A stretch of DNA of 63,905 bases, the filler included, from Atractiella rhizophila (lineage: Eukaryota): NCBI GenBank assembly GCA_021432655.1. It is 3 parts of 3 records of this genome, joined end to end, with 100 filler letters (N's around TTAATTAATTAA, not from the genome) between each part and the next. Parts side by side here need not be neighbours in the genome. Positions count along the whole stretch, not along the records: positions 22,682 to 45,226 come from MU271814.1; 2 more parts are not named here. The stretch is one strand, 5' to 3'. Every line of letters starts with the position of its first letter. Position 1 is the first letter of the stretch. Of this stretch, positions 10,394 through 44,415 are shown piece by piece. Below the pieces are notes generated by a model. The model did no database searches. It was not told the origin of the DNA and worked only from the letters and a program-made list of their open reading frames with translations. Position numbers and translations under genes: made by a program.

Positions 10394-11813
10394 ATGGCCA
10401 CTTTAGCAGCTCAGCTTGCGGCTCAACAAGTCGCCTATCAGTCGTCTCAAACCTCGAAACCCTCGGCGAAGCCAGTTTTCGCGGACAAAAAGACCATTGT
10501 GGCTTTGGAGCTGGATGGGGAAGCAAAGATTGAGTCAGTGAGAGTGGATGGGCTGGTTCGTGATTTCTTTTCTAGTAGAGTAGGATTGGTACGATGATTG
10601 TGATTGTGGTAAACCCCACAGGCAGCGATGAAAATTATCAAGCATGCCAAAGATTCAACTAATTCTTTGGTTGTTGGACAATTGCTCGGAATCGACCGAA
10701 AAGGAGTTGTTGAAGTCAGCGATAGTTTTGCATTACCTTCTGGCGCTCTTGCTTCCGCTGTGGATAGCGAGAAAGAGCTTCACGGGCCGAAAATTGGTGT
10801 GTCAACAAGTCCAACGAGAATAGGTTTTGTTGACTATGAAGAGTAGCTGTCCGATACACGTCTTCAATCATGTCTCGCCTGGTAGACCTTAATAGTGATG
10901 CCTGCATTGTTGGGTTTTATCTCGCCACGTCCTACGGACAACACCTTTCGACTCCGGGTTTCATTGATGCACTGTTGGCAGCTCAGCAAGGCTATCCCAT
11001 AGGAGGAAAAGGGCCAACAACCAAGAGTGTGAAGTTTGGTGCCCCAGTCGCTGCCGCAACGCCCAACTCCCCACAATGGGGCAAGCCAGGGGCCGCGGTT
11101 GCTTTGGTTTATGGTTTGTCCTTTCCACTTGCTATATTCATGTACTAACAAGTGGTCGAAGATGTGGCAGCTTCATCACAGGGAAGCATCTCACTGAAGG
11201 CTTTTCGCCTTAGCTCTTCCTTCTTAGAAGCCCACAAAACGAACACGTTTGATCTTCAGAGGTTTGTCATCGCCTTTTCCTTTGCGGACGACTGCTAATT
11301 ACAAACAGCTTCGCCGATCACCGTTTAACTTCTTCGAACATCCTCGAAGAACTTCCGGTCGTCGTCCAATCCACCTCACTCCTCTCCGCTTTTCTGAGCA
11401 CACTGCCTGCGAACCCATCCGACGAATATGCTTCCTTTTCCCTACCAACATCGACTTCGCAATACTCTGTCCCTCCCTCCCTGACGCACACCGCTTCCTC
11501 CCTCATCCAGTCTCTCGAATCCCATTCATCCGCGCAATCTACACTTTCCTTTCAACTTCGTCAGCTTGCGCGCGAACGTACCCGCTTAGAGCAAGCTGGC
11601 GGGGCGGCGTTAGCCAAGCGGAAGGCTGAGAATGAAGAAAGGAAAAAGAATGGATTAGCTCCTCTCCCTCCCAGTACAATTGAAGAGATTGCACTCAACA
11701 ATCTCGTTGAGCCAAGTAGACTGGAGGTGGAGTGTGCTCTTGCTGGCGTGAGAGGCGGCGCAGAAGCATTGTCGGAGGGGGTCAAGTCAGCTGTATTGCG
11801 GATGGTTGTGTAG
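10394..11813 (+). CDS. EIF3H: Translation initiation factor eIF3 subunit h (MPN domain)
   Basis: VRVDGL..MKIIKHA..VVGQLLGID..VEVSDSFALP, VGFY, LKAFRLS; C-terminal RKAENEERKKNGLAPLP and EPSRLE. Confidence 0.85.
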
Positions 11814-11977
11814 TTCCTGTGAAATGTCCCATGCTTTCGGTTGACCTGTGCTGCCATTGAAACTGTATAAATCCTCTCTGTCTCCTGTGAGAGTTTGCGG
11901 CACCGTTACAATTGCAAAAGTTTCTTCCAGTAGATACAAGTCTTTTTCTTCTTCGTTGTATGTATAGCCCTAAAATG

Positions 11978-13385
11978 TTACATAGAAGTCGTCGCATCGA
12001 CCTCAATCTACAACCGGAAGGCAATGGGGTAAGCAATCTGTCCTTGAAAGGAAAGAAAAGACGTACAGTCGGGGTCACAGAGCTAATGAACTATCAGGCA
12101 CCATCAGTACGTCTCATGGGCGGAGGCTCTGCCTAGACGTACCTTTAGAAAGACAATGAGGTACTGATCAACTCTTAATCCTTCCGGCTCTTCTGCTGCA
12201 GGATCTTTCTTATCCCCAGTCTTCCCTGTCATCTTCTTAACCACACCTGCTCCCCACCCCTTCCCGCTCTTCTTCTTATCTGTGGAAGCAGGTTCCAAGC
12301 CCATTTCCCTTCGTTGAGCTTCGATGACGCTCACGTTCATGCGCTCAATGACTTTCTTCATCACGTTAGCATGTTTGCAAGGATGGACGGACGCCATGGA
12401 AATGTTGTTCAAGTGGGGGAAGGGCTCGATAGTGACAGTCTTCTGGGCGTAATCAGGAGAGATGTCTGAAAAAATCTGGGCAGGGGGAAGGATTGTCTTG
12501 TTCTACGTAACAGAACGCGTCAAGGAGGTTGTAGTGAGGCGAGAGGACGAACCTCGTCGTAACCCATAAGCCAGAAGCGAGGGGTTTGGTAATACTTGTC
12601 GTAGGTGATGAAACAGTTATAGGTCCGAACTTGGAGGAGGTTGTCAGAGGCCCTGTAAAATGACACTCGGTGGCTCGATCAGAATGATGAATGCACCTAC
12701 GAGCTGATTGCTTTCATTCCTTCTTCTGCAGATCGTTTGAGAGTGGCCTGATCTTCTTCCTCCCTCACTCCACCATCTTCGAATTCTTCCATATCATCAA
12801 TCTCCGGAATGTCGTCCATATCTGGAATGGCTTCGTCTTCAACAGCCTTCGAGTTGTCCATCGACAGATGGGCCATTGCAGAACTAACATCCGCATCTGC
12901 TGTAGGGAAGGAGTGATCCAGGTCTGGAATGTCTTTGATTTCCCTAATTGGTTGCGAACTGCCTTCCGACTCCCGATTTGTATGTGTGGTGACCCAGTCG
13001 TCTTCATCTTTCACAGCACCTTCTGCAGCAAACGACATCATCGTCTCCGCGTCTTCATCGGCGTCAGTGTAGATCATCTGAGAGACGCGACGAAGGCAGG
13101 GGACTATAGCACAAATGATTAACGTGACATTCATAAGTGGATCTCAGAACAAGGAAACACACCATTGCGACTGATGAGATATTGCTTGTCCTTCGGGAGG
13201 AAATCACGCGTCTTGCCCTCGTCCCCTTTCTCCCAACTCCAAGTAGGAAACTTGTAAACCAGATAGTCACCTGCAGCTACGAACTCCTCTGGAGTGATCC
13301 GACCGTGTTCCTTGAACTGTGAGGTGCGAAGGACTGGAGCGAGTGCATCACGAATTAACCAGAACTGCGTTTGTAGAGACTGCAT
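11978..13385 (-). CDS. ATG3: Autophagy E2-like enzyme Atg3
   Basis: [39 protein letters not shown], catalytic [25 protein letters not shown]. Confidence 0.95.
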
Positions 13386-13826
13386 CTTGGAATCCTACAA
13401 GGATTCATCTCAGTCAGTCATTAAACACGGACTGAAGTGTTGCGCTGGAGAAAGGAGCAAGACTACTCGGGACAGGTGTTTCGTGCATCACGATGGTGGG
13501 AAAACGAGCTTGATAACGCGTTAACATGGATGGAGACCAACAATCATGTCCTTCTGGCTGCAGAATCAAGCTAGAAGAGGACGCACACGATAGAATGCCT
13601 ATGCCTATATGCCAACAAAGAAGCTACTGGGACTCTCCAAGGCCTTTGTCGCTCAGCTCGACTGAGCAATCGATCAATCGTGCATGGGATCCTCCGATCG
13701 GTTCCGCTGTTGTTAGCTGTTAATTGCAACTTGTCAATTTTTCCAACTTGTTTTACTTATTACAATATTCCACAATAATACTCGTTATCGACGCCTGACA
13801 TTTCGAATGTCGCTCTGGAGAAATAC

Positions 13827-14430
13827 ATGGAGCCGTTTACCAGCGAATTGTTAACTTCAATTTTACACCCGTCTAAACTTGAATTCAAAGATTATCAACC
13901 TCAACTCCTTGTCGGAGCAATATGCGCGTCTTTCTTCGAGCTACCAATCCATTCTGATATCATCTAAACAGGCTTTTCGCAGTCTGTCATTTGGTCGATA
14001 CGATATAAGCGCATAGCTCCACTGTTCGTCGTCCGTATTGAATCCACAACAGTGCCTTATGCTCAGCTTGTCATCCCATAGGTTTGGTGGCGTTGGAATG
14101 CTGGGTTATCTATGTTACAACGCCTCTACCCTTCGAATGCGTGAGAGAGGCTATCAATCCGCCTACCTCCCTCCAGCTTTGTTGGGCTGGATGATGTCCA
14201 CCGCAGCCATTATGGGCTTCCGCAATGGGATGTGGCCAAAAGTCTGGCTCCCCATAGGCATAGTAGGTTCTGCATGGCACCTCCAACAGTGGTTGCTATC
14301 ACGAGAAAAGAGGCGTGGATGGGGCGAAAAACGAGAGGCGTCCAACATCTGGATGGGTCAAGGAGAAGCATGGGTGTCTCGAGGGAAGTCAGAGGGTTTT
14401 GGACGACCTGTTGACGAGCGGTATCGTTGA
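13827..14430 (+). CDS. Small putative membrane protein, unknown function
   Basis: ORF with hydrophobic segments (FGGVGMLGYLCY, LLGWMMSTAAIMG, WLPIGIVGSAWHL); start and exon structure uncertain. Confidence 0.5.
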
Positions 14431-14591
14431 CTTTGACGCTCCTTAGCCGAGCGAAAGCAAACTCAGCAGTGCAGTAATCGTCAGAGTATGCAAAATTATC
14501 ACCACACAACACAAGTTTGCTGTTCCATCACACAAAATGCAGTGCAAATCAAGACAAAGTTAATGTTTGGAGCATATGAACATGGAGAGGC

Positions 14592-17500
14592 TCAATAACG
14601 TTGCAGAATCTCATTCTGCAGCTCTTTTAACCGGCGTACCAGGTCCTGTGAGGTGAAACCGAGCGAGCTGAGTCCCATAAGGTGTCGTCCTAACGCTGCC
14701 TGGATTTCCGCCGCATAGACGTTTTTGCCATGTTTTAACCACGTCTCCGTGAGAAATACGATCTCCCTCGTGAGGTGTAACAGTCCGTCCGATGTGTGAA
14801 ATGGGATTGCCTTCAGCATTGAGGTTCAACAGCAAGCAATTGCCAACGTAATAAAAACAGACCTTACTCCGCCAAAGGTCATCCAGGACATTGAACAGAT
14901 GGCTGTGAGGAATTCCTCCGGCAAGGAGGGCATTTACGATCCAATGTGACTGAAGGCTGGTTGCAGAAACCTCTTTGAAATCGAATTCCTCAAGCAGTAA
15001 GACAATTGATCCTGACATTAACGTGAGGTCAGTCTTGTAGGGCCACCTGGAAGATTAGCAGACACCAACGCAGTGGAAAAGTTGCTGGATACAACCGTCG
15101 AGCCAAATCGGTAAACTTCATACCGACCGCATCGAATCCCTTGTCCTTGACGTGCTCGAAGATGGTACGGTAAATACCTTCAGAGTCCTGTTCGTCATAT
15201 TCAGCCACATTGAATATCACTAGTTGCATTTCGAAGAGGTCGAGGGGAAGGGCGAATTCGTTATATAACTGATAGGAAGACTGTCAACCCTTGTCTAGCT
15301 GGACCAGCAATGCCTACCTCTGATATTGAGAACAGTTTCTCGTTGAGTTTTGCGAGTCGCTCGGCGCGTAGCTCTAGGTCAATGTCTTGGTTGTCTTGGA
15401 GATCTCTCACGATCCCTAACTGGACCTGTGCCACCTCTTGAACCTAGTCAGATAGGTGTCAAAACTTGAGATGGCAGGGCATACCAAGCTTTTCTTCCAA
15501 GTGTTGAACCAACTGGATGACTTCGGAAGCATCTGCCGGAGTTGGAGGTTGTGACTTCGCGTTGGCAAGTGCTAACGACAGATACTCGATTCGTGCTGCA
15601 AGGGTATATTGCCTACACTAAGAGGTTAATAAAAGCTGCTTTCCTGACGTTAGCAAGCAGAATACTCTTCCGAATCTGCTAAGTGACTCAACACGATAGC
15701 AGCGCTGAGGTAAGACGAATTTTCCACGTAATATTGCCATAGAAGCTCCCAACGCTGGAATCTTCGAAGAAAACCTTCTATGAAACTGGATCGGACCTGG
15801 GCAGTGCTTTGGTTTTAGGGGTTTAGATGTTGGGTTAAAAGTAGTACTCACACGAAGCAACTGGTCGACCATATTATGCTGTAGATACCAGCGATAAAGA
15901 AAGTGATGGAAGCACTCGTCATCACTGCTTAGAGCCTTCCCGAACGCATTCTCTTGGATCGCCTTTATCTCATCAGCTACCGACGACATTTTAGTACCTT
16001 GACAGTTTTGTTCACAGCCCGCATACCCTGAAGACTGGCTTGCTTCCCTCCGGAAGCTATTCGAGTAGAGCTCAAAACGTCTAATCGCATCTGGTCTACC
16101 TTCTCCAGTGTCTCCGTAGCCATTTTATAACAAGCCTCTCTCTTGTTATAAAGTTCGCGGCCAACAGTATCGGTAGGGGGCATACCTTGCTGCCAGAAAG
16201 CAAGTCCCTTGTTTTCGGAATCCCATTGCCTCGCACACGCGAGAGCGAGATCGATGGCACCTACACATGTTCAGTCAAGCGAAATCGAATAGAAGATATA
16301 ACAGACCGGAGGGAAAGTGAAGTGAATTGAAATGATTACAAATTTCGAGCAATTTTTCGTGTGAAAGGTGCTTGGTAGCCTTGAGCAACAATCTTCGCAA
16401 AGGGGTCAGGAGTGAGGGAGCATCGAGGGAGCATCAAACCTGAGTGCTTCATGAAGAGTGCTATTTCGTTCTGAGGGCACATGCAAAGTACTAGCTCGAC
16501 GTAAACTTTCCAGAGCCTGGCTAAAGTCAGCACCTGAGTTAATTTCGGGGATTACCTACCTTATATAACAGGACGTCCTCAGCGCTACAGAAAGAGCCGC
16601 AACGATGTTGGAGAATATCACTAATGGCGTCGATCTTTCCACCGACAATCTGAGCATGCACAGACAGGCTAGTGCGAACATACGCTTTGTTGCTGACCAA
16701 TCTGTTGATTGATAATCACATTCACGAGACTTCGAGCGATTTCACGTCCACTTTCCGTTGTCAGTAAGGTCTGATACGTAAGAGACATCAATCCTGTTCG
16801 TATGGCTTCGGTACACCTAGATTGCGTCAAGTTACGAATAAACAAACCAAAAAGACTTACCCAGCAACTATGTTTGGGAGCTGATAGTCGATCAGAAGAA
16901 GGGTGAAAGCGATAGCCTCAACCGCTTGCGTCAGAAGCAAACGCAACGTGTTCAGTGATTGTTGTTCAGCCTTTACTTGCGTCAACTCCGAAGCAAGTAC
17001 TGAGGAATGTTGCTACGCACAGCGTTGGAATCACGTTCCTGTCCAGCATGTCGCCGTTGGTCGACGATGGCAGTGAAGAGTTGCCAATCACTGTTTGACA
17101 TTCAAAATAATGTTCATTAAAGCGGACTACCAACCGTTCTACAAATGACTGTAAAGCACTCAAGTCGCGTTGGACCATGATCAATGTTTTCTCTGGAACT
17201 GCACTCGTGACTGGAAGGTTTTGCCTAGCGGGCAATTCAGCAACGATCAGGACCAAGTGTCAAATAAGCTCACGCAGTTTGAACAACAACCTTCTCTTTC
17301 CAAATGGGACGAAGCAATCGTGCTAAACAGATGGCCAGAGCTTCATGCCTTCCACTGAAAGCAACTTTCCCGTCTGAAGAAAGACTTCCTTGAGAGATAC
17401 TGGCCTGGCTGCCTTGCGTGAACATACGATCAAGAGAGGTTGCGTGCCCCCCTAATTCGTAGAGGAGTCGTTTTGCCGAGTTAATAGCTTCATGAGACGC

Positions 17501-19601
17501 CTGCCGCTGACCAGTAACAGTCATCCCATCCTCCGATTTCGATAGAGAGAGGATGCCAATGCCAGCTGCCACGCAGAGGCACATTGCGCAGGTTTGGTCT
17601 CTTCCAAAGCTGGAGTCGTATTAGTTATTGCTGATGGGTGAACGAAAATCATACTTTTCGCAGAACAATTGAAGATCTGTGTCTCGCGTAGAGGAAACAC
17701 CGATCCCGGTGTTCAAAAGGTTGAACAGGACATCAACGGGTCGTTGGCGAACGACGAGATTGGTGCCCATGTTGGTGACGATGAGAAACTCTCTCCGTTT
17801 GTCAAAAGTCTGACCCGCCAGTTCGTGCGACGCGAAAAAGGCAGATGGAGGCGAAATGTCCTCCAGAGCCCAGACACTGCCCTCAATGTCCAAAAGGGAG
17901 GAAAATTCAAACAGTTGAGGAGACATTCTCGTCCCGGCTAGCGATACCACGGGGTTGACGCCGGAAGTACTTCTGGACTCCAAATGACCCTTCAGCAATT
18001 TGCCAGCATCAGGCGCGGCGGCAATCAAATTGCTCGTACTGTTGAGCTCGTCTATTGACCCAGCGGTAGAGGCAAGGAAGAACCCGCGTTTAAAGCAGGT
18101 TGCGGCCGCTATATTATCAAATACTGGAAAACCTGGAGAATGAGATGGTTGCGTTTGTGGGTTACCTTCATCATAAGTCAGCTCCGGAGTTTTGGAAGAC
18201 GGGAACAGTACTCGACCCATAAGGAGGCTGTATCGAAGTTGAGGCTGCTGGTTGACCGCTTGGAGGCAGCCGAACGTGATGAAGTTGGAGAGCGGGATAA
18301 GACGACATGTAACCAACAGATCGATGGGAGAAGTACAGCCGAACACCTGAGAAAGCACTTTAGCGGAGAAAACCGGACGCCTGCACCTTACCAGTATTTG
18401 TGCATGCCATCAAAGAAATGAGAGAGTCTCCGGCTTCATCCTTTCCGATAATGTCGAGAGAAATCAGTCGGCATGTTTTTGGGTCGAGCACTTGGCTGGG
18501 CACTGTAAACCTCAACGCTTCCCGACAAAGATCTGTGATCTTGACGCGCAAATCCGGTGCCCCATCCAGGCTGCCAGAAGAAGTCCAGATGTTGTACATT
18601 TCTATCGAGTTACCGCGTTGGAGGCAATAAACGAGACCTCTTTCTGAATCTACTCGACATTCCGTCCTGTCATCGATACTGCCAGAATGCTGAACAGCTG
18701 TCTTGGGCGAGAAATAGTTGAGAAGAGCATATCGTGGATTATTCGTTAATCCGCCCTTTGTCCAGTCAAGAACTTCGCATTGTTTTCGGGTGTAAGTTTC
18801 TTCAGAACGATAGTCAATTTCATGAAGATGTCCTGTGGAGCCAACGCAAAATATTCGCCCGTTTGTTGTGGACCCAAATGAGGATAAAGTTAGGCCGTAA
18901 GTAGGTACAGAAAGGTTGGTGAGGTATATGGCAAGGTCAGAACGATTTGTTGGCGAGTCCTGGGCAGTAGCGAGCGCAAGTCCAAACAAAGTGACGGAAG
19001 TAGGCGTAGACACAACCAAAAGGTGTTTGATAGTGTCCACAAACATTCCTGGCAACCAATAAGACAAGGAACAGAACAGAGTTGACACAAACCTGGTTTT
19101 GGCACCACGAGTCCAACACCCACAATTGTGTCGTCTATTTGGTCAAAGACGTGAAGATTATCCCTAGAAGTAGCCGTGTCAACTCAAACTTGATCAGGTA
19201 TAATAAACTTGGATGTGTCAAGAGGCACGAAGAGGAAGCGATAGCGTTCATGCAAAACACCTCCTAGAACCAGGAGCAAGAAAAACTCACGGGTCTTTCC
19301 AGTCCCATAACCAAATCCTCTTCCCAAACGCAACATACGCTCGCTCTACCTCCTTCAATACTCCAATGATAGCCCCAGCTCCTGAGGCTCCATCAGCAAC
19401 ATTAATTTCGTCCAGGACTGCATCTGGCATCATGTATGATTCCTTCTTGAAGAAGGGAGCCCATAACGGCGAAGGAGCGATGGAGTAGGTGTTGGGAGGC
19501 GAAACACCTTGAGACACAAAGCTGTAAAGGGGCGGGAGAGTGTCGTTGGCAATTCTACTATCAATTACGTTTGCCGCTGTGGAGAGGTGTGGTTGGGCCA
19601 T
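14592..19601 (-). CDS. NUP170: Nucleoporin Nup155/Nup170 family
   Basis: VGLVVPKPG.FVDTIKHLLVVST, NGRIF, FSGRHEALAICLARLLRPIW, DECFHHFLYRWY; large multi-exon gene. Confidence 0.88.
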
Positions 19602-22581: not shown

Positions 22582-22681
22582 NNNNNNNNNNNNNNNNNNN
22601 NNNNNNNNNNNNNNNNNNNNNNNNNTTAATTAATTAANNNNNNNNNNNNNNNNNNNNNNNNNNNNNNNNNNNNNNNNNNNN
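22582..22681. other. Artificial 100-nt scaffold spacer (N44-TTAATTAATTAA-N44)
   Basis: Six-frame stop linker inside an N run; identical structure at 45227-45326. Confidence 0.95.
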
Positions 22682-23129: not shown

Positions 23130-23245
23130 TGACGCTCTATAAGGCCCTTGATCTTCTTAGACGCGGGTACTAGAAATCCCAGTTTTAGCATTGATAAAGT
23201 AACCCATAGGGGACATCTGCATATATGGGATGCCAAACTATGACT
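23130..23245 (-). pseudogene. Decayed copia integrase C-terminal remnant
   Basis: Resembles 27840-27935 (gaaatcccag...gtaacc.ata.gg.acatctgc...atgggatgcca). Confidence 0.55.
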
Positions 23246-23258
23246 TCCCTCATTCTTT

Positions 23259-23327
23259 CAACTTCAGACATACCAGTAGAGCAACTTCAGACATACCAGT
23301 AGAGCAACTTCGGACATACCAGTAGAG
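23259..23327 (+). repeat. 3 x 23-bp tandem repeat CAACTTCAGACATACCAGTAGAG
   Basis: Three adjacent copies with one substitution. Confidence 0.9.
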
Positions 23328-23656
23328 CCTAAGGCTCCTTGATCTGAGGAATTAAATTGCCAAGTCTCCACCATCACATGATCATTGCAATAGACCATTA
23401 TATCCCTTTCTCTATCACATCAGTGGACCTTAGGACTCAACCACGTGCTCTAGGAAGATGTTTGGGATGGAAATGGCTCCTAGTGGGTTGGAATTTGCTG
23501 GATTGAACAGTCTTGCTGCAGCAGATGATGTCACTATGCCTCAAGCAAGCCTTGAGTGGATGGCAGACACTGGTGGAACTTCCTACATGTCTCCCCATTG
23601 TCACTGTTCAGAACCTACCAGAAGAAAGTTANNNNNNNNNNNNNNNNNNNNNNNNN

Positions 23657-26600
23657 CTCTACGAAACGTTTCAGTCCTCCTTCCTCTTGCGCAACCTTGG
23701 CGGAGTCCCTGGTGACCTGCTCACCTTTCTTGCAGTCCTAGTCCACCCTCTTCCTTTCTCTCTACGAGGACGGCAGGAAAACCTAAAACCACTTCTACTT
23801 CTCCTCCTCCTGCAAAACTTTCTAGTCCCTCTCGCCCCCCTCTGAATCCCACCTCAGGGGTTTAGCAAAACTTCCTAATTCCCTACTTCCTCTTCTAGTC
23901 CTTCATCTCCTTCTCTCCCTTCTTCGTGGTCTGTCCGGTGTCCGACGAGGTCTCGCCGGTCATTGTGGGGGTGATGCAGAACAAGGAGTCTCTCTGGGAA
24001 CCTGACCTGATTACTACCACCCTTCTGTCTGTCTTAGCGGACTAGGAGAGGTTTACTGCGGAGGAGTTCTATAGGGACGGGGACGTCGAGGAGGTGGTCA
24101 GCTTTCTGCGATAGGACTTGCTGTCTCCTCTGGTGGTCAGCTCAAGACCTTCCGTGGATTCGACGGGGTTGGTGTCCTCCTCTCGAGACTCCTGCTCAAC
24201 CGTTACGACCGATTCCTAACAACCTAATAATGCCTCGGACTTCGCAACCTCACACCAAAATACCTCCAATGACTTGTCCGGTACCGATGTCCTCACGTCC
24301 TAGTGTAGGGGTTCTGTATACGTCTTCGGTACTTCTGAGGTCTCCGCTTTGTTACCGTACTCCGCTGCCACTTCCTCCAAGTTCGCGTGAACCTGTTGTT
24401 CTCAACCCACGACCATTTCGGTGGTTTCCCTCGTTTTCAGTAACCTAGGTCTACCCACAAACGATAGTTCTTCTTCAGACTACCGAGTTAACTCGCAATA
24501 TTCCGATCTAAGCAGTAGTTCCCGAAGAGGGTCGCAGGACCTAAGCTGAAGAAGCTGTGGAAACGTAGGTGTCAGTTTACCCGGTGAGAGTCTTGGTAAG
24601 AAAGCGAACGGACACAGGACCTGTACCTTGACCTTAGTCACCTGTAGAGTTGACGCAAAAACTTGCCTCTTTACCTGCGACTTCAGATACGGTTCGTCGG
24701 TCTTCCAGTGGGAGTTCCAGGAGGTCTTATGCGAGAGTTTGAGGAGTTTCGTTAGATACCGTGGTCCGTTCCTCCTGCAGTTACCGTCTTCTTTGACCTG
24801 TCCCTCGAGCACAGGTACCCGAAGTGGTTCCAGTTCACACTGTCGTTAGAGACCTAGATGAACTTACCACTTCAGTTCCACTAACAGGGTCAGAAACACC
24901 TGCTATATTGCTAACGATCGTGCAGGTTTTCGCGACACCTCCTCAAGTTCTTCCTCAATCCTTTCTCTAAGTTCGACTCCCTGGAACCTCGGTGCCTTAA
25001 AAAACGAACCTCACTCCTAATCCGCCCTATCCTTCGTCTTCTTCTACACCAACCTAGTCCTCGTTATGCAATTCCTGGAAGAGAAAGCTGTCTTCTACCT
25101 ATCGACGTTCGGACACGAGTGAGGGGAGTCACAACCGGTACCAAATAGCTTCGTTCTGACAGGAGTCTGGTTCCTTCTACTTCTTGTCTACGCTTGGTAA
25201 GGGATGTCGGTACAACACCCCAGAGAGTACATGGAACGTCAACGGTGTGCGGGACTGTAGCGGGTGTGAGTTCCTATGACCGGCCAGATGACCTCCTATG
25301 GAGAATTGACAGCCTCCTCCTCGTCACTCGACCTCATCGTTCAACGTCAGAGAACACCGTGAGAGTTGGTGCCTCCGACTCATGTAGAGTCCCCATAGTC
25401 GTCCTGTTCTCCACCAAACCGACTCTTCAGAAGACGTTCTCTAACCGAAGCGAGGTTTTCCAAGCTGTTGTGAAAAGTGCCTGTCGTTGTCGCGAAACGT
25501 TCAGTCGTTCTTAGGACTCGTGGTACCTGCGTACTTCATGAACCTAGAAGCGAAGATGACCGAGTCCCTGTGTCATCTTAGACCTGAGTAGTGGGGTCGG
25601 AAGACGGGACCGCTCAGATACGGACACCTGGAGGAGTGGTTCCGAAATGGTCAACGACCGCAATGTTTTAAGGCTCTTTACTACCCAGACGCGGGGATGG
25701 GTTCACATACTCCGTCAATACCCCGCGTTATTTTGAGACAGGAGGAAGACCCCCAATATTCTGCGGCGAAATTCGCCATGCTCCTAGAGAGATGACCAAA
25801 ATCTGTAAATTGATTATACAAAAGAAACACACTACAGTGAAGTACTACGGAAGTAAGCCACCCTCGAAGTAACCTACCAATAAGACCTACCAAGAGCCTG
25901 AACCACCCTCGAAGTTCTTCGCCGACGGGTCCACCCTCACAACCTAATCCACAATATAAAGACAATACAAACACACCAGTCGGTGGAAACAACACAAACG
26001 AAGTAAAGCCTCAAAATCGGGGGATCCCCCGTCAAATCCGCCAGTAGTAGAAACTGGTGGTTAGAGACAGGGGGTCCATACACAAAGGGATAGTTATAGT
26101 AGTAGAAACTGGTGGTTAGAGACAGGGGATCGAGGTAGGTCGTAGTCTAATAGAGTGCCACCGGTACTAACTACTCCTTCAAGTCGTAGGTGTCAGCGTT
26201 CTCGTAACTCCTATCGGCGGTAACAGGCGAGGTCCAAGTATTCTTCCCACGAGATAGAAAGAGTACTTGTTACCTTTACCGTCACTCTTAACGCATGGGC
26301 GTAGAACTGTAAGCACGCCTGGAAAGGAGGGTCGACTACTTAGTTTCATGCTTCCGGTAGTAGGCTGTTCCACAGACGGACCTTAGGCCTGACCTTCGTC
26401 CCGTTACATTCCTCTCAGCCTCTCCCTGCCCGCTCGCAAAGGAATTAGACGTTAACTTGACGAAAGCTAAGAGCCACGAAAGATTGTGGAAGTACCTGTT
26501 CGTGAAACGCCAGTTCAGCTCCCTAGCCACCTTCCTTAGAGAGTTGGTAAAGCGATAAAGTCTGCCATATCCGTAAATTTTACATTATTACAAACAAACC

Positions 26601-27805
26601 CAGACGACAAGCTACGACTTAGCGTGCGGAGGCGACAAGTCAGCAGAAGGCAAGAACTGCATCGTCAAGTTTAGGTAGCAGCTGCGTGGGACGATAGACC
26701 GTCCGTACGACTTATAACTGTTAGGGAAACTAAAACAGGAAATTCCTAAATCATGGAAAATTTGAACCTCGTTACTGAATGATGACTTAGCTCAGTGCTA
26801 TTAACGCCTCTCCCATCATTCTCTCCTTCGACTACCACGAACATGGTTCGAGGACACTTCGAGTAAACTGTCGGTATATACACCTCAAGAACTAATAAGA
26901 CGGGCCGTGCTATCAGCTGGCCGACGTCTTCTTCGTAAGCCAGCTGCGCTTTCTACATTCCTATGACTCTATCGCTTACATTCGTTCCTTGGGCTCTGCT
27001 CTCCTCAACTTCTCTCTCTGTTGCATGTGCAAGGAGGCCGAGATGGTCCTATTTACAAGGCCACGCGTGGAGGAGAAGTCTCACTCGTTATTGACTTGCC
27101 TGAACTTCTACCAACTTTAGCGCTTTCGACAATGGTAGGCTACTATCTCCTTAACTCCCGACGTCGAATACTTTTTACCACAGGTAACACAATCAACATC
27201 ACACAACAAAACCAGTAGACGGAGAATACTGAACATACTCAGTAGTGATACATCAAATCAAAACGGATCCTCACAACCACGAGTAGTAACTGGTGGTTGA
27301 TGAGGATCCATACAGAGAGATATGAAGTAGTTACGGAGTAGTAACTGGGTGGTTGATGAGGATCGGAATCTAGGGAATGTGATCCAAGATAAGTCTTACG
27401 AATCGAACCCTGGTCCCGTTCACCGGCCAAGTCGTTTCGAGTTCTCTGAGGGAAGCTCTACAGCTCTGAGACCGATGACCGCAGACTCGTACTCGGATAT
27501 ATCCATTACAGAAAAAGGGCAAAGCAAGACGTTTACAGAGAGAGTAACTATATATCCCGTCGTACGAAGTTCAAGGAATCACCGGCTAGGTGCGGCACGA
27601 GAAAGAGTCGATGAAGTTTCACTACGCCTACGTAGACGGGAGAGCATATGGCCATATGTTTCACATTCCTAGATTCCGATCCTCACCAACCACCAGTTAT
27701 TATTCGTGTAATCTCTTCATATCTCTCTGTATGGATCCTCACCAACCACCAGTTATTACTCGTGGTTGTGAGGATCCGTTTTGATTTGATGTATCACTAC
27801 TGAGT
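23657..27805. other. Segment stored as complement without reversal; contains copia RT-RNaseH (~24310-25711), PPT, LTR type B (25939-26156) and LTR type A copies (27189-27380 and ~27663-27805)
   Basis: The base-by-base complement read left to right gives PKTYAEAM...WVFAIKKKSDGSIERYKARFVIKGFSQRPG, VDISTAFLNG, PVFVDDI, PYSHVVGSLMYLAVATRPDIA, QSLVALSTTEAEY and GLRPYPSV*, plus LTRs matching those elsewhere in the window. Confidence 0.93.
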
Positions 27806-29702
27806 CCTCTCATCAAATTTCGCAATATCTCGAGTGTAGACCTTCTTAGACACTGGATCCCAGAAATCCCAGCCTTTAGCGTTGGTAGAGTAACCTATAA
27901 AGGCACATCTGCGTGTATGGGATGCCAGACTGTGCCGTGCCGTCTTTCTTCCTTCTGAACTTGGACATAGGCAGTGGAGCCTAGGACTCTGAAATGTGAA
28001 ATATCGACCAATTGTCCTGTTAATTTTGTGTAGGGAATGGACTGATTGATGGAGGAAGAGGGGGATCTGTTCCTGATGTGAACAACAGCCGAAGCAAGGT
28101 GAGGCCAGAGGAATAATCAAACCAGATTCCTCCAGTATCGCCACCATACCCTCCTGAATCGTCCTATTTGCTCTCTCTGCTCTCCCATTTTGATGAGGAG
28201 AGTTCCTAATCGTTTGCTCACGCTGGATGCCACAATTTCGAAGGTATTCATTGAAATCTGCTGAGGAGTACGCGCCTTCTTTGTCCTCCCTGAATCTCTT
28301 GATTTTCCTTCCAGTCAAGGTCTCCATCATAGCTTTGTACTCCTTAAAGCATTGAGGTGCTTCTGACTTCTTCCTGAGAAAAGCAATTGTCCAGTGACTT
28401 GTTGCCTCGTCTATAAACGTCACCCAATAGCGAAATCCTTCTCTTGAAGCAACTGGGAGCGGTCCATGAAGATCTGAGCTGATCCTCCCTAAAATTTCCG
28501 TCTCCCTATTCTCTGCAGCCTTGTTGTAGATCCTATGCTGCTTCCCAGCGATGCAGGGCTCACAGATGGGGTCAGGAGCGTCCTCTGAGTCCAGAATCAT
28601 TCCTTTCACGAGTCCTTTCTTCACCATTCGCTTTACATCTTCATGATTCAAGTAGGCAAGTCTCCTGTGCTACAGGGAAGCGTTTAGAGGGGTAGTGGAG
28701 GCATGTGCAACGAATTCTGAGGCCATGAGCGTTCTTCCATCGATGATGGCACTCATGTTTCCTCTCCTGTGGTCAACGGTCGCTAAGAAGCAGAGATTTC
28801 CAGCCTTGAGGAAGCGTACTCTGCTCCCAATGATGGTCACAGTTACACCTTCGAAGATTGTGAGCTTGAAAACAGATAGGAGATTGCTGCACAATTTGGG
28901 GACGTGTAGGACATTCTGAATGGTGACCTTCTTCGACTTTTTATCCTCCAATTTCGCCTCAATCACCACTTCTCCTATCCCAGTAGACCAGATCACTTCT
29001 CCATTCGCAACTCTGATGGGTACAACGTGTTTTTGATAGGATTTGAAGAAGTGGGAATGTGGAGTCATTGATGAAGTTGCTCCTGTATCGATAATCCAGT
29101 CAGTCCCAGCTTTCTGGTGACTAATGGTATCATCTACCGCTGCATAACTGGTCTCTCCAGCGAATTCTGGCTTTTCCGTTCGACTTTGGCTTCCTTCACC
29201 GCTTCCAGCTTGCCATACTTCGATCTCTACTTCTCCAACTCGATCCTATTGCGTCCAGAAGCAGTTTCTGGGCAGTGGGAGACGAAGTGGCCCTTCCTGT
29301 GGCAGTAGTTGCACACAGATTGCGAAAAATCTCGAGTTCCTCCTCTTCCACCACCTCTGGGATGCCATCCTCCTCATCCTCTGTTGCTGCTGGACACCTG
29401 ATTTGCCATTTGATTGTTGGAGATGGCTTCCTCTGAGTTCTTGGTGGCTTGGATCGAGTAGAGTGCTTGTTTGATTGATTGGAGGTCGGTGGATGTCATC
29501 AGGGTTAAGTTCTGGACGAAACTAGCGTATTCTGGGCCTAAGGAGCGAATGAGAGCGAGGGATTGGAGATCTTCCTTCAAATCATCGAGGGAATAGTCCT
29601 TGGAGAGCGTGTTGGTGAAGTCTAGAAGCAGCTGGTCGCTTCTGGCACACAGGGTAATCAGAGATTCGCTTTCCTTCTTCTGGAGGGCAAGGAGGGTGTT
29701 GA

Positions 29703-29892
29703 TGTAAGGATCTAAGGCTAGGAGTAGTTGGTGGTCAATGATGAGGCATTGATGAAGTATAGAGAGACATACCTAGGAGTAGTTGGTGGTCAATGATGAG
29801 CACCAACACTCCTAGGCAAAACTAAACTACATAGTGATGACTCATACGAGTCATAAGAGGCAGATGACCAAAACAACACACTACAACTAACA
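29703..29892 (-). mobile_element. Solo LTR type A inserted in copia gag, 5-bp TSD GTTGA
   Basis: GTTGA at 29698-29702 and 29893-29897; removing the LTR and one TSD copy restores STRFTALNTLLALQKKESESL. Confidence 0.92.
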
Positions 29893-30388
29893 GTTGAGGG
29901 CAGTGAAACGAGTTGAGGTGCGCTTCTGTTGGTGTATGTCTTGAAGGGTGGACCAGATCTTGACTGGATCTTGAAGGACAGAGACGACATGGGCTTTCTG
30001 GGTTGCTTCTAGGCTAAGGAACAGGATTCCAGCCGCTTGGTGAGCTGTCCTTTTGCCACTGCTTTTGCTCCTTCAAATCTTCTGGTTTTGTCTCTACTCC
30101 AGAGACTATCTCCCATAACCCCTTTCTCATCAATTCTGCCTGCATATCAATGCACCAGGTGCCATAGTTCTTCTCTCCAAGGGGGGTAATCAAAATTTTA
30201 TTTTCTTCGGCCATGGTGATAAAATTCGAGTTTGGATCGTCCGATCTTCGTAGAAATGGGTGGATATAGGCGTAAGGGGGTCTCGTTTATGATCCCAAAG
30301 TTTCAAACCGATTGGACAACGGATGGCTGAGTGATCAAAATTTTCAACCAAGTGGGTGGCAAAACTGATCTGTCAATCCCTAGCCACC

Positions 30389-30401: not shown

Positions 30402-30567
30402 TGAGAGAATCTGATGCTGGATGGAGCTAGGGGACAGGGATTGGTGGTCAAAGATGATGACCGCCTAAACTGCCCCCTAGGGGGCTAAAACTCCGAAGTA
30501 AAGCGAACACAACCAAGGTGGCTGACCACACAACACAAGACCATGAAATATAACACCTAATCCAACA
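30402..30567 (-). repeat. Copia 5' LTR type B (166 bp)
   Basis: TGTTGG...CTCTCA on the minus strand; homologous to the complement of 25939-26156. Confidence 0.85.
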
Positions 30568-30813
30568 ATGGTAAGGATTGCACCGCAATCAGGATGGTTG
30601 TGGAGAGCTTTTTTGATGCTGTGTGCTTGAGTCACAGTTCCACCAAACTTCGGCAGACTGAGCATCAAATTTGTTCTGGGTGGCACTGACCTTTTTGATT
30701 TGAGCTTCAGACAGCCAAATTTCTTGCCCGTCGACAAGTTTTTTGGTGGGCATCGCATCAACTTTTTGATTTCACATTTTCCAGTTGGAAACCTGGTGTT
30801 GTCGCTTTTGGCG

Positions 30814-31576
30814 TGTACAATCCCTCGTTGCTCTTTCTACCACGGAAGCGGAATATGTCTCAGGAGTCTCAGCTGGCCAAGAAGTTGTCTGGCTAAGGAA
30901 TCTTTTAGAAGAAATCGGCATCGCTCCTCAAGGTCCTACAGCTCTCTTCACAGACAGCAGCAGCGCTCTACAGGTATCCAAGAACCCTGAGCACCATGGT
31001 CGAATGAAACACCTGGACCTTCGCTTTTATTGGCTCAGGAATGTTGTTGAGATGGGCAAGATCAGTCCAGTCTTCTGTCCAGGGGTCAATATGCCAGCGG
31101 ACCTCCTTACCAAGGCACTTCCGGTCGCCAGTGTGGACAAGTTTCGAGTTATGATGGGTTTGCGCCCCTACCCAAGTGTCTGAGGCAGTTATGGGGCGTA
31201 ATAAAAATTCCTTTCCTCCTCTGTGGGGTTATAAGACGCCGCTTTAAGCGGTGCGAGGACATTCCCTCTTCTTTTCACTGAAAAAACTAATATGCTTTCT
31301 GCTTTATATCGAGTATACATTGTGTGAATTTGGTGGGAGATTCTCTGGATTTGGTGGGAGCATCAAGAGACAGCTGCCCAGGTGGGAGTGTTAGTTGTAG
31401 TGTGTTGTTTTGGTCATCTGCCTCTTATGACTCGTATGAGTCATCACTATGTAGTTTAGTTTTGCCTAGGAGTGTTGGTGCTCATTATTGACCACCAACT
31501 ACTCCTAGGTATGTCTCTCTATACTTCATCAATGCTCATTATTGGCCACCAACTACTCCTAGCCTTAGATCCTTAC
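30814..31576 (+). mobile_element. 5'-truncated copia: RNase H end, 3' UTR, PPT, LTR type A (31389-31576)
   Basis: QSLVALSTTEAEYV...FTDSSSAL...HHGRMKHLDLRFYWLR...MPADLLTKAL; GGTGGGAG + TGTTAG...CTTACA. Confidence 0.9.
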
Positions 31577-33230
31577 AATAAATGCCCGAATATAGAAAAT
31601 AATGCTGACATAACTTTCTCCATTACTATCAGAATCTTCTGTATCATCCTGACTGTAGTTCATATCGCCATCTAATGAAGTCTCCGTCGTAGGCCCTTTA
31701 TCTTGCTGATCGACCTTATGTTTTCGAAACATATGACGATGCACCCATTTCCCACTGTGGGAATCCTTCCTGCATCTATTACAAGTACACCATCAATAGT
31801 TCTTAGAAGGGTGCATTGGTCTACTCTGTTGGATTAACCACTGGGCTAAAATGACTAGTCATTTACCAACAGTGCAGATTAACCCTTTGTACCCAAGTTC
31901 AACATACTCTCCATCATAATGATCCTCTATCTCTGTTTCTGAGCTGTTACCGACAATATAACCAAATACGTCCAACTAAATAACCAAATACGTCCAACTA
32001 ACTTCTCAGTTAAGTATATTCTACGTAAACAATAACCTCTTTAAACATCACATTTCTCTCTTTCAAACTGAAGGTGTAATGGTTTCTGAAGATTATTCAT
32101 CAGATGATCAGGAAAGCGAGCATTCACAGGAGGATCTGGATTTTGCACTTGGAAATAGCAAGGGGATAGAAGCTTCTTTCAGTGAGCGCAAAAGTGGTGT
32201 TGATTTTGCAGCCGGTCCGTTCTTTCTTGTTCTTGTTTCACTGTGGAATGGGTATTAAAGGTATTGATTTAGGTGTGCCGTCATCAAACTTCAACTTTCT
32301 CACACGTTCAAGCAACATCTCATCGCGTACCCCAATCTCTCGACTATCTACCCCATCCAGGGATTCACCAGAACCATCCCATCCTTCTCAACTCTGGAAT
32401 TGTCATCTCAACCTCAACACTGTAGAGGGTCAAGGTCGTTCACACCTAGGTTCGCCGATATCGCCTCACCATAATCTAGACCTTTCAGAGCCCCCAAATC
32501 TTTGGCAAATCTTGGCCAGTGTCACAACAACTGATCTTCTTGCTTTTAGTCCTGTGTATCAACGAGCACATGATGAGAATATAGCTGTGCAGACCAAGAT
32601 TAGGGTTCTCAGATCCGTTCTCCCATCTGCACTTATTAGTACACATCATGATGCATATGCAATGGGCATGTTAGATCGCTATACGACAGCTTTAAAGATT
32701 ACAATCGCACACCACCTCCAGCTCAGCCACTGCCTCATCCTCATGAATCCTCCAGTCGTCATTTAGTCTCCCAGAGCCATACCAAAGCAGTTCTGATGCT
32801 ACCGCGATTCCAAGATTTAACTGAGTTGATTTCCCCATGATAACCTGCTGGACAAGTGCGGAATTCAAGGCTTGGAATGATGTTTACAAGAAGCTCAGAA
32901 AAGATGTGCGGAAAGGAACGACACAGGACTTCATTCAGGGTGAAGACGGCCAACCAATCTCACCTATCCAAACCGAGCAGATCAGGGAATGGATCGGTCA
33001 GCGGTTTCTTGGAAAGGACTACAGCTAAATAGTCTCCACGTATACCAATCAACTCTTACACGTGTTCATCAAACATTTTCCTCTCCTCGGCTATTGTGAT
33101 GGTTATTTCCAAGCTCTCTATTTTCTCAATGCCGCAAGCTATACTAGGAAACGGAGTATTGTACGGACGGAGAAGAAAGCACAGATCAAGTTTGAACTGA
33201 AGGATGCCAAGCCCATCTTGAAGAATACCG

Positions 33231-33460
33231 TGTAAGCATCTAAGGCTAGGAGTGGTTGGTGGGCAATAATGAGACATTAGAGAAGTATAGAGAGACATAC
33301 CTAGGAGTGGTTGGCGGTCAATAATGAGACATTAGAGAAGTATAGAGAGACATACCTAGGAGTGGTTGGTGGTCAATAATGAGCACCAACACTCCTAGGC
33401 AGAACTAAACTACATAGTGATGACTCATAAGAGTTATAAGAGTCATAAGAGGCAGATGAC
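33231..33460 (-). mobile_element. Partial LTR type A with the internal 55-bp unit duplicated
   Basis: Starts TGTAAGCATCTAAGG; units at 33246-33300 and 33301-33355. Confidence 0.85.
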
Positions 33461-34559
33461 TTCAAGCCAGTCTAAACTGCTGGACGTCTTTTCGAAGCAC
33501 GAGTGGATTAGTTAAGTGTGAACAGCAGTATGTTTCTGTACTTGCTACGTAGTACATTATCGATATTCCATGAGTTTAGATTTACGGGACTTAACCTAGA
33601 TTGCTATAAAGTGAGGCAAAAGGAGCTCCTCCAACTCTCAAACCAGATGATATTGAACACCCTGAAGTAATTGTTATGGCTGTCCGTTCTGAACGACAAA
33701 ATTATTTGCAACAGTTTGATACACAAAAATAGTTTATTTGCAATTGAGAAGGGGATTGTTCCTCATATTCAGAGAGTAGCCAGAGGAGACTGTGAGTTTG
33801 AACAATTTTATTAAAAAGAAAGGGAATTTACTAACAATGTATTATTAAGCAGCAATCAAAGTATTCTGGACACTCCCTCCACCAGTGAAAGTGACGTACA
33901 CAAAGCCAACAAAGAAGGGTAACCTCGGAGCTGAAAAGACTTGTGGTCAATGCAAGAAGCAAAAGGATGGGTATGGTGAGAAGAATACAAACAATCACAA
34001 GCGCAACATCTGTGACAACAACTTTCTGTATTGGTCCAAGGTCCTGTACCCACTGCCAAAGACCAACTTATACAATGTCCTACTTCGTAAGAATATGTTG
34101 GGGAAGTGAAGCATAGATGAGAATGTGGTAAAGAAGTTTTTCACAGATATCAAGGATGGGAAAGTACCAGATGTTGATCAATTGGTGGAGATATTGAACA
34201 TGCGAGTTTTTATGGCAATGACATGGGTAGAGGGACTAGGTTTTGACAAAAGAAAGGTTGCATATTAAAGCGGGATGAGAAAGTAGTGGTTCATTTAGTG
34301 AGTAGTCAGAGGCAAATAGATATCCTTTGTGATTTCAGTCGGGACATATAAAGCACCAGCTTCCACTTTTGAAATTTTTTATAAATATCACATCAACTAT
34401 TATAAAACAAAGGCAAATTTTGAGCTTTTATTTGATCAATTACAACTGCAGTTGCAAGAGGACGGAATGCACAGTTACAGATTCATGCAATGTAAATAAT
34501 GTGAGTTCATGCTCTGCTTTGTTAATATCCCCTCAATGCTAATAATCCTCATACGTCAT

Positions 34560-35200
34560 GATAGCTAGCTCTCAGGCCCTGCATTCAATGCACTTATGCC
34601 TGAGATACAATGGATAATGGTGAAGTAATAGGGAATCTTATCTTTGACATATATAGGGTGTGTATGTTTTCCTCTGCTGTTTTTGATGTTCACTCAAACT
34701 CTCAAACTTATTACGCATCATACATAGTAATATCTAGCCCTCTGGCCCACCACTCACCATGCTTACATCTTAAATACGATGGAAAATAGCGAAGCGATGG
34801 TGGAATTGTATTTTTGACATATATATGAGGTGTGTATTTTGTCATCTGCTTTTTAAATATTCACTCATTCTCAACACATATTACATGTCGTTGAAGCTAC
34901 ATCACAGGCCTTCCATTCATGCTGCTTACATCTAAAATACGATGAATAGCGGTGAAGCAATGGAGAATTACAATTTTTGATATGTATGAGGTGTGTATTT
35001 TTTCCTCCAATTTTTTGATATTAGCTCATTCTTACTATGAATTATACATCGTTGTAGCTGGCTCTCAGGCCTTCCATTCGCCCCACTCACTCCTGAAATG
35101 TGATGGATAATGGTGAAGTAATAGCAAATTGTATTTTTGATATATGAAGATGAGTTTTTTTTTGCACTGCTTTTTAATGTTCACTCATCATTATTACATG
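34560..35200 (+). repeat. Degenerate AT-rich tandem repeat, ~4 units of ~165 bp
   Basis: Recurrent tggtgaagtaata / tttgacatatat / gtgtgtatttt / ttcactca motifs near 34618, 34787, 34950 and 35111. Confidence 0.65.
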
Positions 35201-35373
35201 TTATACAGGGCAACAACAGCATCATATACGCTATGTTCAAGCTGCTTAACAGGAAAACACATTGGGTATTGATGTCAGAAGGTGTGATCACATTTCAAGT
35301 TTCCACGTACCTGTATTTGTTTTGTTTTTTTTTGCTTCAGAGACAGACACATGCCATTTCATAGACCCTGGAT

Positions 35374-36992: not shown

Positions 36993-38747
36993 ATGGCAAC
37001 CGATGACGGAGCAGATGACGATGCACTTTTTTTTCGGAATTGCCGCCCCACGTCATCGACGACAACTTCTTCAGAGACCACACGAATGACACTCATGGCC
37101 CATGAAATCTTCACTTCCGAGCCAACTGGTGAGTGTCAACGGTGCATCCGTCCAGCGATTGAGATTACTTTCCAGCGGAGACCCAAAGTCTCCAATCACT
37201 GGCAACGAACAAGACCTCGAGAGACGAACCTAATCCCTTCGAGCTTGCCTTTAACCCGTCCCACCAGTCATCGCCCAGTGCAAGCGGAGTTAAAAGGTCC
37301 AACTCGACCTCGCCCAACGACATCCACATCAGTGGCATACACACACCAAGAACTCCTGGGAACAACAAGCTGCCGCCATTTAGCTCCATAGAAACCCGGA
37401 GCATCCCATCAGAGCTGAATTGGAGTGCGAATGTTGACAGGTATGCCATCACTTTGTGAGAGGAACTACGCTTAGTGAAGGTACCCTGCTATTAGTTTAA
37501 GGAGAGGGCCGCTATCTCCTTCCTTGCTTGATGGGCCGGTGCAGCAGGATCCGTCGTTAGGACTTGCTCACAGCTTCCCGTTTAAAACAGGGCTCACGCC
37601 TCAAGGGTCTGGTCTCACTCCGCTCCTCAATGGTTCACTTCCTCCTATCACGCCAAATACGGCTTCAGCAATACAGCATTTTATCATGGGTGACTCTCCA
37701 GCGCCACCTCCAATATCCGCCACCAATCTTGAAGGAAACCTTACAGATACGATTGCAGGCAATTCACAGGCTCCATATACTTCAACCCATACTGTTTCCG
37801 ACAGGATATCTAGCTTGCCAGCGTCCTTTCCCGTCCTGAGCACTCAAGCGGAGTCGCCATCACTCAATTCAGCTGAGCGATCAGTTATCGCTGCTGCCTC
37901 GGGATCTAGAAGTCAACCTGCCGCGCTTCCTTCTCACTCCCGAATTGCATCAGTTTCCCAGACCACTGCTTCAGCGAATTTACTACTTCCTGATGCATCT
38001 CGAAATCAGAATGGGCTTTTTCTCCTCACACAAGCACACGAATTCACTCAACAACCTGACGATATTGCTGCTGCTGCTGCTCTGAGTAGCCTTAATAACA
38101 ACAGTGGTTTTGGCGCTTTGCCAGTTATTGCTCGACCGTCGGCCGCGAAACAACCGCCCACCGTGGAAATCGAGAGCAAGCCTTCAGGTTCGCAAACCAG
38201 AGGAAAGAAGGTTACTCCTACTGGGGGATCCAAGCGCAAGAGGACAGAGACCTCAACATCGGGTGCTGGTGGAGGGAGGAAAGCAAAGAGGACAAAGATG
38301 GTTGATGACTCGGAAGAGGACGAGGAATATATGTCTCTTGGGAAGGAGAAGGAGAAAGACGACAAACCAGAGACGGAAGAGGAAAAGCGAAAGAGCTTTC
38401 TCGAGAGAAACAGGCAAGGTGTGCTTCTCTATCTTTTACTGTGGGCCAAACTTGCTGATATTGTGCTGGTCCAATAGCTGCGCTTAAATGTCGTCAAAGT
38501 AAGTCGCATTGTTCGTTGGTGAAGATTCACTGATGTAGAGGTAGGAAAAAAGGCATGGTTGGCATCACTTCAAGCCAAAGTAGAGTATCTGTCTACTGAC
38601 AATGAGGCACTCCAAGCCACAGTCGTCAGCCTCCAAGAAGAGATTACCTCCCTGCGTACGCTCCTATTGGAGCATCGAGAGTGCCTCCTTCGCAGCAAGG
38701 ATGCCCAATCTCGCCAAGCATCCACCCTGTTGGGTTACACTCAATGA
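36993..38747 (+). CDS. ATF1: ATF/CREB bZIP transcription factor (Atf1-like); start uncertain
   Basis: NPFELAF and KTGLTPQGSGLTP motifs; bZIP ETEEEKRKSFLERNRQAALKCRQRKKAWLASLQAKVEYL. Confidence 0.85.
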
Positions 38748-39023
38748 GAGGATAACACGTACATAGTTGCTTTCGTGTTCATAGTTCGCTATTAGTTGCA
38801 TGCAGACTTACAAATGGTAACTTACTTCATTTGATTGTGTTGTGTAACAGGATTGTAATCGCTCCACAGTGCGCTAATTCTTCACCTGTCTAGATGGTCG
38901 ATTCAATTGTAGATATTTTGCGATTAGATTGTCCTTGTGCAAAGTTCGTTCTTTGGACAATGCTCGCAAGCTGCCACAAAAACAAAGTTCAAAGCTAGCA
39001 AAAGAATCATAGTGTAAAAAGGT

Positions 39024-39620
39024 CTAGAGGTTATCCATATGGGCCAACGCTTCTTGCTTTTCTTTCTCACTGAATATCCTTGGCTACAGACGTGGATAAT
39101 TTAGCGATGCGCATATAAAAACGAACGGCTTACTGGAAGGTTGCGTTCCCTAAAAGCCATTGATAAGTGTGAATGAGACCTGAAAATGTTACCAATAATT
39201 ACGCACCATTTCGTCCCACCAGGAAAGCTAGGAACTAAACGAACAGGTCAAACAAAGCACCTTAGAAGAGAAAATGGAATTCTACCTATGTACGGGTCTG
39301 GGTGATCCCATTTCGCTACCTCTTTCTCAGCTTCTGCTAATAACTTTGCGACTGCTCGAGGATCTCTGACTTGGCGGTTCTGCTCAAACATAGCTCTTAT
39401 ATGTAGAGCTTTGATACGCCATTCGTCGTGACGAATGTACCAATTAAGGCTTCCTTTGAGGGCTCGCCTGGGCAGAGTGTTAAAGGTTGTGGAATAGCGG
39501 GAGGTATCCTACCTATACAAATGCTGTTGTACAATCAGTATCTAGGCAGCTAAAGATATCCAGGCCTACCTGAACGTAACGGCGATGAGCTTGAGAGAAA
39601 GGAGAGACAGCTCCGGACAT
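39024..39620 (-). CDS. NDUFB9: NADH:ubiquinone oxidoreductase B22 subunit (LYR family)
   Basis: MSGAVSPFSQAHRRYVQ...RALKGSLNW...IRAMFEQNRQVRDPR...HPDPYI.PSFPGGTKWERN; missing from the ORF track. Confidence 0.85.
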
Positions 39621-39803
39621 CGTGCTTTGTGGTGAGTGGTTTGGTTGATGAGGGTTAATGATGTTGAAGTAAAACAAACTACCAACCACATCAGCATCAG
39701 TTGTCTGTTGTCTTGCAACGTCGAGCTATTCGTTCACTTAGGAATTGAAGGTTGGTACCAAGGTCTCATGGAGCATTTCTGATTTATGCAGACATTAGGC
39801 AGC

Positions 39804-40290
39804 ATGGAGCTTCCACCCCTTGCCCAGAACTTGTGGTCCAGCTACACGTCGAGCAGTGAGTAAACGCTCAGCTTTGCGCTCAAGATTTCAGCTGAGCTCC
39901 CATGAAGCTCCTGCTCGGTTGCGACTTATTGACAATTTATTGGTCTTCTTGATGCTAACCGGAGTGTCGCAATTCGTCTACTGTCTTTTCGTGACCAACT
40001 TCCCCTTCAATGCTTTTTTAGGAGGGTTCGTAGCTCGTCTTTTCTCTGGATCGTAGGCTTATGAACTATGTCAGTTTTGCAGCAACAATTGGTCAATTTG
40101 TTTTGACAGCTTCATTGCGTTCACAAGTTAATCCCAAAATGCGTGCCACTTTTCCTTCAGTATCCCAAGAACGGTAAGGCTTCCTCCCTCTTCGCTCGCG
40201 ACGCTTACAGTTTCATGTACCAGTGCATTTGCGGATTTCGTGTTCTCGTCACTCATACTTCATTATTTTGTTTTCAATTATCTCGGATAA
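39804..40290 (+). CDS. OST2: Oligosaccharyltransferase subunit Ost2/DAD1
   Basis: RLRLIDNLLVFLMLTG..QFVYC..NFPFNAFLGGF..IGQFVLTASLRSQVNP...ERAFADFV...NYLG*. Confidence 0.92.
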
Positions 40291-40587
40291 TGCATCATTC
40301 TCGATTCAACTTGCAACATTCGTCCCCGCTCACAAAAGCTGGAAATCGTCGACCTTGAGATTTTAACGCATATTAACCAACCCTTACGTGAGGAGAGAAA
40401 ATGATGTTCAGTTGCAGCCGACTACCGATTAGAAAAAGGCTACAGAACACCCTTTCCGTGTCATGACAGAGCTCAGGACAGATTCAGTGTGCAAATTGAG
40501 ATATAAATGAATAATACGGATGGAAATGCAAAAGGCACACAAATACCTAATTATACAGATTCATATCCTCGGTGCCGTCTAACTGTC

Positions 40588-43726: not shown

Positions 43727-44415
<689 letters not shown>

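Follow-up and report, generated by a model that had tools for sequence, protein, structure and literature searches.

A mirror-written block beside an assembly gap hides the 3' half of a degenerate copia element in Atractiella rhizophila

Background

The Ty1/copia retrotransposons of basidiomycete fungi carry their domains in the order gag, protease, integrase, reverse transcriptase (RT) and RNase H, as in the polyprotein P0007 (Retrotran_gag_2, Pol_BBD, gag_pre-integrs, rve, SH3_retrovirus and RVT_2). The reverse transcription of such an element copies only the DNA between its own long terminal repeats (LTRs). The element of Atractiella rhizophila described here has the same domain order, shares TG...CA LTRs and PBS-like and PPT-like sites with this group and is 44-59% identical to its members in the RT and RNase H HSPs. 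It differs in that the copy is broken, in that its pair of LTRs (termed LTR-B) lacks a shared target-site duplication and in that its 3' half is written in mirror image in the deposited record.

DNA strings of this mirrored kind have been described in two other settings. Reversed, uncomplemented DNA serves in Dfam as a homology-free decoy (PMC3531169); the string is altered in the way found here, which likewise hides transposable elements and genes from homology searches, but the alteration is deliberate there and accidental here. The same string transformation, a systematic A-T and C-G exchange, has been attributed to GenBank sequences and claimed as biological 'swinger' DNA; according to that paper, swinger DNA has been reported for this A-T plus C-G rule only, and its author alone interprets such GenBank sequences in this manner (PMC4942731). 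In the present case, by contrast, the related reads run in the normal orientation and an assembly gap adjoins the block. A third described system, the gap filler PBJelly, treats 25 or more N as a gap and, by flank extension, shrinks a gap that it does not close (PMC3504050, accessible portion), the default minimum gap being 25 (PMC6240028, accessible portion). Breakpoints in repeats and a gap that reaches the 25-N limit recur at the locus described below, for which a one-sided extension into the gap is proposed; 25 N is, however, a minimum gap size in PMC3504050 and not a signature of the program, and the accessible portion of that paper does not mention an orientation fault.

Methods

The window, that is, the whole stretch of DNA analysed (63,905 nt from assembly GCA_021432655.1, filler included), consists of three pieces of 22581, 22545 and 18579 nt. 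They are joined by identical artificial spacers of 100 nt (44 N, TTAATTAATTAA, 44 N) at 22582-22681 and 45227-45326, and neighbourhoods across these spacers are not real.

The normally written integrase on the minus strand (27812-28669) was used as the search query. It returned 125 longer relatives, the best 120 of which were stored as a set of copia polyproteins for tblastn; the best-scoring named relatives are from basidiomycete fungi.

Read evidence was taken from contigs, not raw reads, of X1 and X2, two publicly available runs from a single related sample; seven runs of small share (X4-X7 and X9-X11) do not enter it. The contigs of this multi-copy element were aligned at 85% likeness, with at most 30 loose letters at each contig end, and the loose letters were compared with the start of the block by eye. 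Inside the block, the comparison with reads covers a single further site, the LTR-B module. Composition was examined in 500-bp tiles across the window with a strand-aware order-3 Markov model.

Results and discussion

Homology evidence for a mirror-written block

The block at 23657-27805 (4149 nt, assigned to neither strand) is natural DNA in mirror image, with its sequence in reverse order, placed between an N gap and the start of a contig, and its first base belongs beside 27806. The gap at 23632-23656 directly precedes the block and comprises exactly 25 N, as the earlier note had described, and is the only 25-N gap in the window.

As deposited, the block contains only short ORFs on both real strands, while its complement read from left to right contains open stretches of 400 and 231 codons. 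None of the 11 ORFs of at least 60 aa lying wholly inside the block reaches the Pfam cut-off (one hit has an E-value of 0.12) and none of the best 120 of 125 copia polyproteins matches the block as deposited (best score 26.9 bits, E<=10). Searched against the complement, 85 of the 120 polyproteins match, with scores of up to 328 bits and E-values below 1e-100, and all 222 HSPs run from left to right. The right flank is matched by the full set of 120.

The earlier note had held that copia pol is legible only in the plain complement. Indeed, the five copia motifs that it quoted all occur when the complement alone is translated, at nt 24492, 24639, 24894, 25219 and 25364, and are absent from the block on both real strands; one of them, STTEAEY, has a single occurrence outside the block, at 30836, in another copy. 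The LTR copies that it had reported in the complement were likewise recovered, the complement-only image of the block aligning at 82-98% identity to LTRs in other parts of the window. The best of these, to the repeat termed LTR-A, reaches 98% over 192 nt. The two LTR-A pieces of the block align at 94-98%, as mirror images only, and every complement-only blastn match in the window involves the block.

Composition of the block and of the window

Eight of the nine tiles inside the block have negative, mirror-leaning scores (mean -10.3), as against three of the 118 tiles outside it (mean +10.8, minimum -3.2), and all six tiles of the window that fall below -5 lie in the block. A region at 26157-27188, discussed below, has an LLR of -25.1, compared with positive values for 49/49 natural tiles, which belonged to the training set. 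The two LTR-A pieces score slightly positive (+3.8 and +4.3), and their mirror status is therefore taken from the alignments. Composition is normal in the rest of the middle piece and in the other two pieces, and tiles together with complement-only homology disclosed no other mirror block in the window, at a resolution that blocks under about 500 nt could escape.

Read contigs at the junction

Contig pieces of X1, X2 and X3 start at 27806. Those of X1 and X2 align from this position rightwards and are preceded by loose letters that correspond to the start of the block read backwards, with 26 of 27 letters identical in X2 (two contigs; chance about 5e-15) and 13 of 14 in X1 (three contigs; chance about 2e-7). 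The nearest match to the X2 27-mer in the window as deposited has nine mismatches. It was thus rightly proposed that reversal brings the first bases of the block against the integrase end at 27806. Furthermore, a module that only the LTR-B of the block has occurs in the read contigs in normal orientation, its letters agreeing with the block at 26075-26097 read backwards (19/21), at a site 2.4 kb inside the block.

Over 270-450 nt of the left flank, the X1 and X2 contigs carry 8-9 differences from the window (about 2-3%) and hence probably represent a related strain and not the source strain. The loose ends derive from paralogous copies, matched at 85% likeness. Read depth is zero in 15 of 30 bins (23738-27697) in all four runs, and the remaining 15 bins are all covered by X1 and X2; such contigs show presence, not absence, and the zero depth is accordingly given no weight. 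None of 47 pattern matches to related loci in metagenome contigs was confirmed.

Since the loose letters include the first base of the block and the alignment starts at 27806, the reversed block abuts this position without overlap, giving FDER-EMLCK and not the overlapping junction FDERCFAK read previously. The single read difference is synonymous in the FDER-EML frame, and in the FDERCFAK frame it would replace Phe by Ser, although most of the homologues listed continue after FDER with x-F-P-G, which is superficially nearer to the latter. In 81 of the 120 polyproteins, an integrase HSP ending at 27790-27830 is accompanied by an RT HSP that starts within the initial 850 nt of the complement of the block, and RT follows integrase in all 81 of these informative homologues (order protease, integrase, RT, RNase H). 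The linker between integrase and RT has a median of 141 residues in the homologues versus 199 codons in the block.

Organisation of the element and its surroundings

The contig that starts at 27806 carries the 5' half of the element in normal orientation on the minus strand. It includes an integrase at 27806-28669 (gag_pre-integrs, rve, SH3_retrovirus), a protease at 28673-29245 (Pol_BBD), a frameshifted gag at 29272-30216 (HSPs at 29272-30190) and a 5' LTR-B with TG...CA ends at 30402-30567, which is followed by the PBS-like TGGTAGCGAGAG. The gag is split by a solo LTR-A (29703-29892, minus strand), which is bordered by a 5-bp target-site duplication, GTTGA. Homologue residue 110 is found on both sides of this insertion, and read joints at 29697-29893 skip 195 nt, exactly the solo LTR-A, in other copies. 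This LTR-A was also considered as the 5' LTR and rejected, as it has its own target-site duplication and interrupts gag.

The remaining features are legible only in the complement of the block. The linker between integrase and RT (23657-24098) contains one +1 frame change near 23820-23850, and the copia RT (24099-25275) another in a T run near 25000. The RT HSPs, at up to 328 bits, cover the RVT_2 span of the homologues P0001 and P0007, by which the RVT_2 assignment is indirect. RNase H follows at 25271-25708, as seen from tblastn HSPs, and a PPT-like tract at 25924-25938 precedes an LTR-B with TG...CA ends (25939-26156) that contains a 54-nt GT...AG module; the same PPT-like tract precedes LTR-A at 74 and 31389. 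Beyond the LTR lies about 1 kb of non-copia DNA, also mirrored (26157-27188), with no match elsewhere in the window. A full LTR-A at 27189-27380, with two extra C in C runs and no target-site duplication, is separated by 280 nt (27381-27662) from a partial LTR-A in the opposite orientation (its 3' 143 nt, at 27663-27805), at what would be the far end of the extension proposed below.

To the left of the gap, the contig at 22682-23631 (950 nt) has normal orientation and composition and breaks off inside a second copia element, on the plus strand, where the protease domain of that element begins (23491-23604). This start is matched with E-values of about 1e-7 to 3e-5 among the 15 best HSPs listed and has no Pfam hit. 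Such a plus-strand copia would fit a reversed block that starts in the end of a plus-strand LTR. On its minus strand, the same contig holds a degenerate copy of the SH3 region of integrase (23150-23328; 78% to 27839-27950), then three copies of a 23-nt repeat.

State of the element

A gag, a copia-type RT and TG...CA LTRs with PBS-like and PPT-like sites are all present, and the block conceals the 3' half of a fungal Ty1/copia element, now dead, together with flanking DNA. The dead state of the element follows from stops and frameshifts in both halves, the solo LTR in gag and a skip at 25275/25277 of 56 homologue residues, the first RNase H aspartate motif among them, seen with 5/5 homologues listed. 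The two LTR-B copies align with 156 matches, 6 mismatches, the 54-nt module and four small gaps, and share no target-site duplication (ACCAT before the 5' LTR-B, CGGTG after the 3' LTR-B). The 3' half may therefore stem from another copy, either because reads were assigned wrongly or because copies recombined long ago. The continuous LTR-to-LTR element envisaged in the earlier note thus gives way to a broken one, in which the target-site duplication and the open gag-pol frames of a single intact copia insertion are lacking.

The end of the 54-nt module in the LTR-B of the block repeats the sequence preceding it, and the 5' LTR-B, without the module, yet keeps the ending of the second copy (TAG, not CAG). 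Loss by slippage or recombination fits this difference at least as well as splicing.

Origin of the block

The block at 23657-27805 is a data error in the record and not new biology. The most probable source, to which we assign a probability of about 96%, is a software artefact at the gap, whereby natural DNA was extended from 27806 and written in mirror image during a gap-related step. A short-read contig would have started at 27806, inside a multi-copy copia element, and a gap-filling step would have built an extension of about 4.1 kb outward from this contig end. The extension, possibly taken from a paralogous copy, would have needed reverse-complementing for placement on the plus strand to the left of the contig, and only one of the two operations would have taken effect, a 25-N placeholder remaining for the unfilled remainder. 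The block lies exactly between the N gap and the contig start, with copia repeats at the ends of both contigs. The continuation of the read contigs past 27806 with the reversed start of the block speaks for the gap-related artefact put forward earlier. The more specific wording, 'complemented without reversing', stands in so far as only one operation would have taken effect; complementing alone and reversing alone can each yield this string, according to the strand one starts from, and it does not reveal which of them occurred. Further, as the mirror takes in LTRs of either orientation and 1 kb of other DNA besides pol and LTR-B, the block is not a product of reverse transcription.

The step may have been a long-read flank extension of the PBJelly type. 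PBJelly leaves 25-N placeholders, and the program is here only a lead. Extra single bases had previously been taken to fit a long-read fill. The two extra C in the 192 nt of LTR-A, as against 0, 0 and one deletion in the three normal copies, agree with this, but the apparent +1 bases number only four (two in LTR-A and two pol frame changes) and the normally written 5' half also has frameshifts and stops, so that a long-read origin is weakly suggested. A gap-filling fault that writes mirror images was not found described in the literature searched, software trackers, subscription journals and supplements lying outside that search. It is conceivable, though on balance doubtful, that a gap-filling program has an orientation fault, as yet undocumented, which may affect many hybrid assemblies.

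There is little room for the explanation that the mirror arose after assembly, when a formatting, scaffold-joining or database step flipped a component wrongly. The artificial N44-TTAATTAATTAA-N44 spacers that join the pieces of the window do indicate that the record was post-processed, but only a sub-contig block between the gap and the contig start is mirrored, the other DNA reads normally, and the block continues the right contig directly.

Far less probable still is a biological origin, in which a polymerase exchanged A with T and C with G systematically, or copied 3' to 5' without complementing, and the copy was integrated. We know of no polymerase with such copying chemistry. In the related reads these letters join 27806 in normal orientation, and the block adjoins the N gap, replaces the missing 3' half of the element instead of forming an extra copy and extends over non-element DNA. 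Although sequences of this kind have been claimed (PMC4942731), the use of reversed, uncomplemented DNA as a decoy rests on the assumption that it removes true transposable elements (PMC3531169). A chance resemblance of the complement to copia is refuted by the E-values, by the contrast of 85/120 with 0/120 matching proteins and by the LTR-A identity given above.

Other observations in the window

More copia remnants in normal orientation, comprising RNase H pieces, PPT-like tracts and LTR-A copies, occur at 1-1100, 30791-31577 and 33230-33445, and one LTR-A among them contains 2.5 copies of a 55-nt unit. A direct tandem duplication of about 960 nt with 99.3% identity (48722-50641) represents either a recent duplication or a second assembly error. 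Fragments of host genes with Sec1, eIF3h, Nup133, Aft1 HRA, Nop and RRM domains at 7730-19142 and 37479-46756 are ordinary fungal housekeeping genes. The minus strand at 1148-3763 is free of stops over 872 codons but gives no Pfam hit, and a degenerate AT-rich tandem array (period about 161-170 nt, units about 70-75% alike) lies at 34549-35207.

Conclusion

In the record as it stands, any ORF called in the block is spurious, searches miss the RT and the integrase ORF receives a false stop at 27797. A strand-aware k-mer scan provides a cheap detector of mirror blocks; should the fault prove to originate in a gap filler in wide use, other public assemblies will have to be scanned likewise. The biological weight of the finding is nil, as the hidden content is a dead copia element; it matters for data quality and annotation.
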